Origin: Escherichia coli
GTDB lineage: Bacteria; Pseudomonadota; Gammaproteobacteria; Enterobacterales; Enterobacteriaceae
Length of the DNA: 64,000 nt
Strand: one strand, 5' to 3'
Assembly: GCF_045037415.1 (NCBI RefSeq)
Contig: NZ_CP173438.1
Part shown: positions 19,123 to 19,675 of the stretch, one piece after another
Numbering within the stretch: position 1 is the stretch's first letter
Layout of the letters: every line of letters starts with the position of its first letter
Program-made: the position numbers and the translations under genes
Notes under the pieces: model-generated
What the model saw: the letters and a program-made list of their open reading frames with translations, nothing else
What the model was told of the DNA's origin: nothing
The model's database searches: none

Positions 19123-19401
19123 TTAGTAGTAGTAAATTTGTGGATAACAGTCCGGGAACCAGACGATTCCTTCCGGATCATCCCCCTGCATTACCCGATG
19201 ACATTGGCGTCGATCATCTGCGCGACGGCGAAGCGTAGTATAGAGCCGCTTCCATTCATGATCGCCCGGTGTACTGTAGTTTACCCAACAATCCATTGAA
19301 GGGTGACGCCATTTACCTGTAAGTGTTGGGATCCCTGAATGCTTATGCGGCTTCGCTTTACCATTACGATCCCTATCTTTACGCGTATTAAACGTGGACA
19401 T
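19123..19401 (-). CDS. Hypothetical small basic His/Cys-containing protein (92 aa)
   Basis: ATG preceded by aacaggagactaaaa (strong SD); no recognised family. Confidence 0.55.
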   Translation of the reverse strand: MSTFNTRKDRDRNGKAKPHKHSGIPTLTGKWRHPSMDCWVNYSTPGDHEWKRLYTTLRRRADDRRQCHRVMQGDDPEGIVWFPDCYPQIYYY

Positions 19402-19462
19402 TTTTAGTCTCCTGTTAAGAGTTCTAAAAATGTGCTTCCTTAAAATAGTTCATCATTTTCCC

Positions 19463-19675
19463 TTAATTCGCATAGCGTGCTTTTGCACGAATTTCCGATA
19501 CGCGGGGACCATTATGATAGCGTCGATGCCCACACATCCAACAAGAACAAATACAGGGAGTACGAAAGCAAATACCTGATGCTTTTTTGCTTCCATCGCC
19601 TGCAGTGCGATAACGACAGCGGATTTTTTTTAATCGCACCATATGATGGCGACGTTCAGCACGATTACGGGTCAT
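19463..19675 (-). CDS. Hypothetical small basic Cys/His-rich protein (70 aa; CxCxCxxCxHxxxH cluster, possible zinc ribbon)
   Basis: ATG preceded by ttcaggagttttgct (strong SD); tandem with the 92-aa gene. Confidence 0.55.
   Translation of the reverse strand: MTRNRAERRHHMVRLKKIRCRYRTAGDGSKKASGICFRTPCICSCWMCGHRRYHNGPRVSEIRAKARYAN

Follow-up and report, generated by a model that had tools for sequence, protein, structure and literature searches.

Two small cationic proteins of an Escherichia coli accessory island whose translation appears to be gated by leader ORFs and hairpins

We analysed a 64,000-nt stretch of the Escherichia coli chromosome (RefSeq assembly GCF_045037415.1, contig NZ_CP173438.1; hereafter the window) and concentrated on two neighbouring open reading frames (ORFs) of its minus strand, ORF70 and ORF92. 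They occupy a variable accessory island with fabY (yiiD) on one side and yiiE/yiiF/fdhE on the other, and strain SK1144, among others, matches the surrounding 2.2 kb with 100% identity. Along the minus strand the genes run from a RelE/HigB-like gene to a NadS-family helix-turn-helix (HTH) gene, ORF70, ORF92 and then a ribbon-helix-helix (yiiE-like) gene. An earlier note, made from the sequence alone, had located both ORFs, the caggag motifs in front of them (ttcaggagttttgctATG and aacaggagactaaaaATG) and a Cys/His string in ORF70, and we found all of these in place. ORF70 was left uncalled by the Prokaryotic Genome Annotation Pipeline (PGAP) in the record that we inspected, and usually goes unannotated in the RefSeq genomes of E. 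coli. Around the two genes we found two short upstream ORFs (uORF1 and uORF2) and two hairpins that cover Shine-Dalgarno (SD) sequences or start codons. The region can be described as a small, mobile and dispensable cassette formed by uORF1, a leader hairpin, ORF70, uORF2, a second hairpin, ORF92 and a terminator (table 1). GC-rich hairpins with U tails also occur 3' of ORF92 in Salmonella and Edwardsiella, and 3' of a solitary ORF70 on a Klebsiella plasmid.

Table 1. Features of the ORF70/ORF92 region in coordinates of the window.
Feature	Position	Strand	Remarks
RelE/HigB-like protein	20051-20362	-	103 aa; context, outside the conserved cassette
NadS-family HTH protein	19760-20050	-	context, outside the conserved cassette
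uORF1	19711-19749	-	12 codons, MPYRKHQHSELL then stop; starts 11 nt after the nadS stop
Leader 1, nested stem-loop	19678-19724	-	minimum free energy (MFE) -24.0 kcal/mol, z = -3.5
ORF70	19463-19675	-	70 aa; conserved Cys4 cluster; PHROG 4499 member
uORF2	19424-19456	-	mini-ORF, M(M)NYFKEAHF then stop; stop 22 nt before the ORF92 AUG
Leader 2, hairpin	19399-19432	-	ORF92 SD AGGAG in the apical part
ORF92	19123-19401	-	92 aa, unnamed family; PGAP hypothetical protein WP_001296612.1
Hairpin past the ORF92 stop	19088-19114	-	GACCGGU, 13-nt loop, ACCGGUC; weak U tail
Better terminator-like site	19053-19041		

Judged by their conservation, both frames are genuine genes under purifying selection where they are intact. 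A divergent allele of the two is found between fabY and fdhE in other Escherichia, with an amino acid identity of 74% for ORF70 and 66% for ORF92. Between two E. coli alleles, a single comparison in which dS is saturating, ORF70 shows a proportion of non-synonymous differences (pN) of 0.15 against 0.64 for synonymous ones (pS), i.e. a dN/dS of about 0.12. The corresponding values for ORF92 are 0.25, 0.70 and about 0.15. Conservation and dN/dS rule out that these are chance ORFs. The possibility that they are pieces of a longer disrupted gene, raised by the earlier note, was checked against intact homologues and also dismissed: since these share the lengths of our genes (69-72 aa for ORF70, 92-98 aa for ORF92), the latter are not fragments. 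The good SD sequences had been taken to indicate translation. The genes are indeed real, but conserved hairpins mask the ORF70 SD and the ORF92 AUG. Because both ribosome-binding regions sit in such hairpins, a good SD alone is no proof of free translation.

To describe the first hairpin, we took the 90 nt that precede ORF70 at every locus, aligned them and folded each one, a set with 45 distinct leaders. In the window, the outer stem of leader 1 pairs CAGAACUCCU (19724-19715) with UUCAGGAGUUUUG (19690-19678); the latter contains the SD of ORF70 (GGAG, 19686-19683). An inner hairpin, GCGGCA-UAG-UGCCGC, is nested between the two arms (19708-19694). This arrangement, with the SD on the outer 3' arm and a GC-rich hairpin inside, is the MFE structure in most of the 45 leaders. 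It is found in gamma- and beta-proteobacteria and in Desulfobacterales, with z-scores typically between -3 and -6. The anti-SD and SD arms vary yet stay complementary: CAGAACUCC/GGAGUUUUG, CCUCAUA/UAUGAGG in the Edwardsiella type, CUCCGAAUA/UAUUCGGGG in Pantoea, CGAGUUUCUUC/GGAGAAACUCG in Rhodocyclaceae, GAACUCACG/CGUGGGUUC in Xenorhabdus and UUUGCCAUCAUAAC/GUUAUGGAGGCAAA in Desulfobacterales. We compared the pairing probability of the SD window with that of controls in which the upstream part was dinucleotide-shuffled. At this locus it is 0.93, which none of 60 shuffles reach, against 0.60; the mean over the 45 leaders is 0.70 against 0.55 (Wilcoxon p = 1.7e-8). Three of the six pairs of the inner hairpin show double compensatory changes in a sequence-only alignment.

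Other explanations for this hairpin were discarded. Of 5426 complete E. coli genomes, 3369 contain the sequence of leader 1, and the one or at most two copies per genome rule out a dispersed repeat of the repetitive extragenic palindromic type. The inner hairpin is not an intrinsic terminator, as the U tract is missing. A search of Rfam 15 over positions 18900-20500 gave nothing relevant at E <= 10 for either leader, and the same search in 11 related loci retrieved only tRNAs at the gathering score.

The arm that covers the SD is itself overlapped by a short ORF. uORF1 crosses the anti-SD arm and stops just beyond it. In most lineages the ATG of such an ORF lies 74-87 nt upstream of ORF70 and the frame traverses the anti-SD arm; most of these ORFs have a plausible SD 6-14 nt upstream. 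Other alleles encode the peptides MTYRKQRHSELM, MMNRKFQYSELM and MASRKQRHSELM, each followed by a stop codon. The peptides of Pantoea, K. indica, Pectobacterium, Xenorhabdus and the Klebsiella plasmid have an MRK start and (Y/H)SE, and the pattern can be written as MRKI(I/L)(Y/H)SE... or, more loosely, as MRK.../...RK..(H/Y)SE. The Arg codons of these peptides differ synonymously (CGT versus AGA), which speaks for selection on the peptide or on its translation.

A second structure of this kind separates ORF70 from ORF92. uORF2 has an SD-like sequence of its own, AAGGGAAA, directly behind the ORF70 stop codon. In leader 2, CAUUUUUAG (19432-19424), which comprises the last two sense codons and the stop of uORF2, pairs with CUAAAAAUG (19407-19399), which holds the start codon of ORF92. 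The stop codon of the mini-ORF is thus part of the masking arm. Equivalent hairpins were found in 12 of the 12 loci that we folded, with different sequences, e.g. CAUUGGUAAC/GUUACCUAUG or CUUCUAG/CUGGAAG. About 10 of the 14 ORF92-family lineages examined share this combination: the mini-ORF has a strong SD, its stop precedes the main AUG by 21-25 nt, and a hairpin connects its end with the initiation region. It also occurs in unrelated contexts (loci L013, L012, L016 and L066 of our collection). The mini-ORFs of the family encode MNYFKDAHF, MRYIQEHW, MYLLQEHF, MHHDTIGEHL, MLRHFKQENWDDF and MVKHYRKALDAL, and can be as short as two codons before the stop (MR, MK or MT). In Mixta sp. Marseille-Q2659 (L021:6375-6969), one ORF70 homologue is followed by two tandem ORF92 paralogues, both of which lack the mini-ORF.

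Translation of ORF70 and ORF92 thus appears to be kept locked by hairpins and leader ORFs, and the arrangement of the elements suggests how the locks could open. The transcript probably originates from the RelE/HigB-like-NadS pair: only 84 nt separate this pair from ORF70, we saw no promoter-like site in between, and the sole such site across 18900-20600 (18966-18937) lies downstream of the cassette. The co-transcription with the HigBA-like pair proposed by the earlier note is plausible at this locus, although the link is not conserved elsewhere. Both uORFs are predicted to be translated. A ribosome coming from nadS and then translating uORF1 would unwind the anti-SD arm and free the SD of ORF70. 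A ribosome at the end of uORF2 would likewise unwind the arm covering the AUG of ORF92 and allow initiation there. uORF2 is placed such that it could be reached by re-initiation of ribosomes ending ORF70, or by loading of its own. The result would be a relay from nadS to uORF1, ORF70, uORF2 and ORF92, with a low basal level, an ordered output and a dependence of ORF92 on upstream translation.

Control of translation by leader ORFs or by folding back of the mRNA is known from hok/mok, from the SD occlusion of the IS10 and IS200 transposases and from the leader peptides of erm and cat. Mobile elements and phages typically place dose-sensitive or toxic products, whose level has to stay low, under this kind of control. 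The cassette resembles these systems in that an SD or a start codon lies in a hairpin and a short uORF overlaps the masking arm, here as predicted in silico. It differs in having two successive locks in one transcript, and no antisense RNA or antibiotic-sensing role is evident. The proteins also differ, being hydrophilic and cationic (grand average of hydropathy, GRAVY, of about -1) rather than membrane peptides. In this they depart from a type I toxin-antitoxin (TA) system of the hok/mok kind, as neither protein is a small hydrophobic membrane toxin.

The two proteins are basic to different degrees. The earlier note called both strongly basic, which describes ORF70 well (isoelectric point, pI, 11.1; net charge about +16; GRAVY -0.96), while ORF92 is just moderately so (pI 9.5; about +6; GRAVY -1.32). 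Neither has a hydrophobic segment. Neither matches Pfam, even at E <= 10, nor NCBIfam or PADLOC. Profile searches of PDB sequences and Foldseek comparisons of both AlphaFold2 models with the PDB returned no match for either protein, and we found no relevant report in the literature on T5.055, phrog_4499 or the RefSeq accessions. The earlier statement that neither family could be recognised holds for these family databases, except that ORF70 falls in PHROG 4499. The phrog_4499 profile matches residues 3-67 of its 70 (profile positions 6-73 of 88) with E 1.4e-13; for comparison, the protein of phage T5 itself matches with E 2.9e-41.

ORF70 belongs to a family that is shared by phages, plasmids and chromosomes. 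A tblastn search retrieved it in 477 phage records, nearly all T5-like, where it corresponds to the N-terminal two-thirds of the 104-aa protein T5.055/ORF053 of the Tequintavirus early region. Chromosomal versions (69-72 aa) were found in 44 species genomes, from Enterobacterales, Vibrionaceae, Chromatiales, several beta-proteobacteria, Desulfobacterales and one metagenome-assembled genome of Acidobacteriota. Among plasmids, 153 carry the gene; 115 of these are conjugative, and most come from Klebsiella. T5.055 is about 50% identical to ORF70 over residues 4-63 of the latter, and both have RRHH, TPCxCSCWMCG and the G...(S/Q)E.R segment that follows. It is longer than ORF70 (about 104 aa), because its C-terminus carries an additional acidic tail (pI about 4, net charge -8), which matches a PHROG of its own, phrog_6828. 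This tail is phage-specific: ORF70 and the other chromosomal and plasmid members end at about residue 70. The T5-like leader resembles leader 1 in that, read from sequence, an upstream AUUUCUCC is complementary to the SD region GGAGAAAU and there is an internal hairpin; it differs in that its MFE structure in RNAfold is not the nested fold. The T5-like phages also differ in lacking an ORF92-type neighbour.

The conservation of ORF70 centres on two motifs, a basic helix (RA.RRHH..R.K..R) and a Cys cluster (TPCxCSCWMCG). Across 38 sequences, R9, R19, G34, C43, C45, C48 and G56 are invariant, and R5, A6, R8, H11, R14, K16, T39, P40, C41, S44, M47, G49, R52 and E61 are at least 90% conserved; ORF70 itself has every residue of both sets. 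The cluster reads C41-x-C43-x-C45-x-x-C48-x-H50-x-x-x-H54. Hence, the Cys/His string described earlier is there and its four Cys are conserved, but its histidines are not: position 50 is His or Asn among homologues, and H54 varies. Because the four Cys are invariant or nearly so, a metal-binding cluster is plausible, and it is most likely what these residues form. The fold suggested by the earlier note, a zinc ribbon, is not supported, given the single CxxC (C45-C48), the CxCxCxxC spacing, the unconserved histidines, the helical model and the lack of a fold match in the PDB. The AlphaFold2 model of ORF70 has four helices, with the Cys cluster in a loop, and its confidence is modest (predicted local distance difference test, pLDDT, 68).

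The small zinc-binding ribosomal proteins bL36, bL31 and bL32, which have paired CxxC knuckles and autoregulatory leaders, are a useful comparison. ORF70 is like them in its size (40-70 aa), its very high positive charge, its Cys cluster, its limited independent fold and its structured 5' leader. It differs in the CxCxCxxC spacing, and shows no sequence or profile similarity to solved structures. Another explanation is that ORF70 is an RNA-binding autoregulator, with a logic like that of ribosomal-protein leaders or of phage translational repressors. It would bind its own inner hairpin and stabilize the fold that masks the SD, and its role in the cell would be exerted on similar hairpins in other RNAs or on the ribosome. 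A structured leader does accompany the family in phages, plasmids and chromosomes alike, irrespective of what lies next to it; in gamma-proteobacteria the inner hairpin has a semi-conserved base (GCGG...CCGC); and a small, highly cationic protein with a Cys cluster is reminiscent of zinc-knuckle RNA binders. However, the loop and stem of the inner hairpin vary widely, which points to selection for stability rather than to a specific site recognized by a protein, barring co-evolution of the two partners. This hairpin is present once in the window, and its low copy number per E. coli genome makes no other targets evident. Moreover, ORF70 has no homology to known RNA-binding folds. We consider this explanation quite improbable.

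ORF92 has few close relatives. From 1.84 billion representative proteins, its profile retrieved 72 clusters at E <= 1e-3, 16 of them at E <= 1e-10. The family core is P.WW.R..TRPRR...G.DPDG..WP...KPH.YYW, and conservation reaches at least 90% at P47, W50, R60, G73, D75 and P87. E. coli has the variant HEWKRLYTTLRRR...GDDPEG..WFPDCYPQIYYY, with TLRRR in place of TRPRR and YPQIYYY in place of KPHxYYW. The AlphaFold2 model (pLDDT 74) shows one long helix predicted with very high confidence (residues 47-71, WKRLYTTLRRR...) and an otherwise extended chain. The families of ORF70 and ORF92 show no relationship in hhalign.

Some relatives of ORF92 lie in other settings. On a metagenome contig (L013:3757-4234), in a uvrC-pgsA neighbourhood near a MerR gene and an integrase, a gene of the ORF92 family follows that of a 58-aa basic Cys protein (MHHKRKRSKARRAGCLLCKPNK...). 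This protein (MHHKRKR...C..CKP.K) has an N-terminus that resembles the MAHYKRKRPR start of longer ORF92-family members, and hhalign found no similarity between it and the ORF70 family. The ORF70/ORF92 pair of Edwardsiella adjoins the same pgsA-uvrC-tRNA cluster. In the early region of a metagenomic T7-like phage contig (L067:2501-2722), the gene for a T7-type RNA polymerase is immediately followed by that for a distant 73-aa member, which has no uORF2-type mini-ORF in front. Among cultured phages, a tblastn search with distant ORF92 relatives hit only an unverified 3.6-kb record, GenBank OR851001.1 ('Salmonella phage S.Kent 1-2-1', UNVERIFIED_ORG, 3578 bp; L002), which is the sole 'phage' record with ORF92. 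A Salmonella chromosomal island (L004) encodes an identical ORF92 protein and a nearly identical ORF70 protein, and the record further has genes for an HNH-type endonuclease and a Cys-rich 133-aa protein. This record is probably bacterial DNA and not a phage genome.

Together, the gating, the mobile and patchy spread and the homologues in early regions of lytic phages suggest that the two proteins are dose-sensitive effectors. Because of their charge, the Cys cluster and the predicted folding upon binding, both may bind nucleic acid, RNA or the ribosome being likelier targets than DNA; our confidence in this is low to moderate. The same holds for the possibility that both act in conflict or takeover between phages, plasmids and hosts. 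The reading that we favour, and hold to be probable by a moderate margin of confidence, is that of a translation-gated mobile cassette of two dose-sensitive, nucleic-acid-binding proteins.

Several observations weigh against this reading. When RNAalifold was applied to a MAFFT alignment, the inner hairpin was the one part of leader 1 that it retrieved, as the anti-SD/SD register of the outer stem slips between lineages. The core of this pairing grows inward in some of them and outward in others; the slipping register suggests selection for occlusion of the SD and not for a fixed RNA shape. Some distant leaders (L040/41, L047, L054-56 and L059) show no masking of the SD under the start codons that we called. 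The evidence from the uORFs has its own weaknesses. An ORF started by ATG is not rare by chance in a stretch of such size, in many lineages uORF1 continues through the hairpin and past the start of ORF70, and its stop lies right behind the anti-SD arm strictly only in the Escherichia/Klebsiella type. The conservation of the uORF2 peptide is partly imposed by RNA pairing (CAU with AUG; His before the last residue). As for the proteins, neither matched a defence or toxin family in PADLOC, the models are of modest confidence and have no fold or sequence relative in the PDB, so that binding of metal and of nucleic acid is argued from composition.

The association between the two genes is facultative. 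Among the 44 species loci, which were found via ORF70, about 11 have an ORF92-family gene after it. They are from Escherichia, Klebsiella, Salmonella, Citrobacter, Edwardsiella, Kosakonia and Mixta. The remaining species loci, the Klebsiella plasmids and the T5-like phages have ORF70 without ORF92, and ORF92-family genes are also found alone or with other partners. We clustered all neighbouring ORFs across loci and found no conserved partner besides ORF92. Edwardsiella and the Klebsiella plasmid encode proteins of 211 aa and 216 aa, respectively, upstream of ORF70, and these two show no relationship. The earlier note had proposed co-occurrence with the neighbouring TA pair as a check, and the outcome was negative: the HigB-like/NadS pair is found beside the cassette only in Escherichia, K. 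spallanzanii and Pseudocitrobacter, it is missing from L009, which has both genes, and from L004 and L006, and contexts elsewhere are unrelated. A conserved tie to this pair or to any other neighbour is ruled out by these varying contexts. The nature of the pair itself is plausible rather than firm: the NadS partner just reached its model (NF041265, 60.7 bits for a cut-off of 60), and the 103-aa HigB-like protein matches RelE PF06296 weakly (E 0.006). The two also match phrog_2104 and phrog_5869, the HigB-like protein belonging to the latter.

These patterns bear on the possibility that ORF70 and ORF92 are themselves a TA-like or abortive-infection module, in which one protein (ORF92 or ORF70) is a toxin that arrests growth, the other neutralizes it, and coupling sets their ratio. 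The acidic-tailed homologue of T5-like phages would then be an antitoxin mimic or a decoy. Type II TA cassettes, such as RelE/HigB-like-NadS, are alike in being compact, coupled two-gene units that are found in islands and plasmids with a patchy and often decayed distribution, and our small cassette even lies beside a TA-like pair. The tight coupling of ORF70 to ORF92, the strong masking of the ORF70 SD, as for toxic products, and the presence of homologues of ORF70 alone in phages would also be consistent with a module of this type. Yet both proteins are basic, and they match no toxin or antitoxin model in PADLOC, Pfam or NCBIfam. ORF70 is solitary in about three quarters of the species loci and on plasmids, and ORF92-family genes also occur without it. 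On these grounds (no domain match, pairing not obligate), membership in type II TA is not supported, and we hold a TA-like or abortive-infection module to be unlikely.

The cassette is dispensable and often lost, as are many accessory or selfish modules. In a comparison with the 5426 complete E. coli genomes, 1269 of them (23%) showed a match to 80% or more of the 651-bp pair region, and in a further 1558 or so (about 29%) the match was confined to the leader and the beginning of ORF70. The one genome of the latter kind that we examined is E. coli O111:H8 08-4455 (L061:2020-2650, corresponding to 19123-19675 of the window). A deletion of about 390 bp has joined codons 1-17 of its ORF70 to the last third of ORF92, which is decayed, and the resulting allele retains a 30-aa ORF (MTRNRAERRHPMMRLKKLIVALMIDVNAIG). 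The genomes that match only the leader and the N-terminus of ORF70, a class defined by partial match alone, may carry the same deletion. Frameshifted variants of ORF70 exist as small clusters. Could both genes then be decaying leftovers of phages or plasmids, without present function in E. coli and with incidental hairpins? The many genomes that appear to hold only a remnant, the frameshifts and a family common to phages and plasmids would agree with this. Against it stand the strong purifying selection at saturating synonymous divergence, the intact orthologues in many genera, which preserve length, motifs, leaders and terminators, and the complementarity of the hairpins, which is kept despite sequence change. 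We regard this explanation as hardly credible.

The hotspot between fabY and fdhE is variable beyond the cassette. In the window it also holds genes for a DUF6708 protein (282 aa) and for a 246-aa protein of an unannotated family (16710-18323 on the plus strand and 18508-18753 on the minus strand). These sit between two ribbon-helix-helix (yiiE/yiiF-like) genes as an extra insertion, which is missing from the O111:H8 layout. Another Escherichia (GCA_015332265.1; L009:3281-7046) has an alternative island at the same site. It encodes proteins of 421, 175 and 178 aa with no known function (on the opposite strand), the divergent ORF70/ORF92 allele and a 110-aa ORF, and lacks, besides the HigB-like/NadS pair, the hydrolase and yiiE/yiiF. 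Elsewhere, ORF70 homologues are often in islands with defence-type genes (Salmonella L004/L005, Pantoea L023-L032), such as dndBCDE, a cluster of SNF2 helicase, AAA and S8 peptidase genes, or type I restriction-modification genes beside an integrase. None of these neighbours is conserved.

A bolder proposal, which we put forward tentatively and think doubtful, is that ORF70 and ORF92, each with its leader, represent two undescribed classes of translation-locked small cationic effectors. They would act on the translation or RNA machinery in phage-host conflict, and be exchanged by lytic phages (in the early regions of T5-like phages and of the metagenomic T7-like one), conjugative plasmids and chromosomal islands. 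If true, one of them might, for example, be a host toxin or a sensor released when translation is perturbed, to which the acidic tail of the phage homologue would be a countermeasure. In that case, the locks made of a uORF and a hairpin would represent new RNA motifs of cis-regulation, and what they sense would be the traffic of ribosomes. If the proteins are dose-sensitive binders of RNA or the ribosome, or a toxin and its counter-toxin shared by phages and hosts, T5-like phages would have a function assigned to one of their widespread early genes, and phage-host conflict would gain a new small-protein player. Otherwise, the analysis still mends the annotation, by one missed gene and two leader ORFs, and documents a common deletion polymorphism at the fabY-fdhE hotspot. 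In either case the locus offers a compact and testable case of two-step translational gating, with one mini-ORF and hairpin to conceal an SD and a second such set to conceal a start codon.

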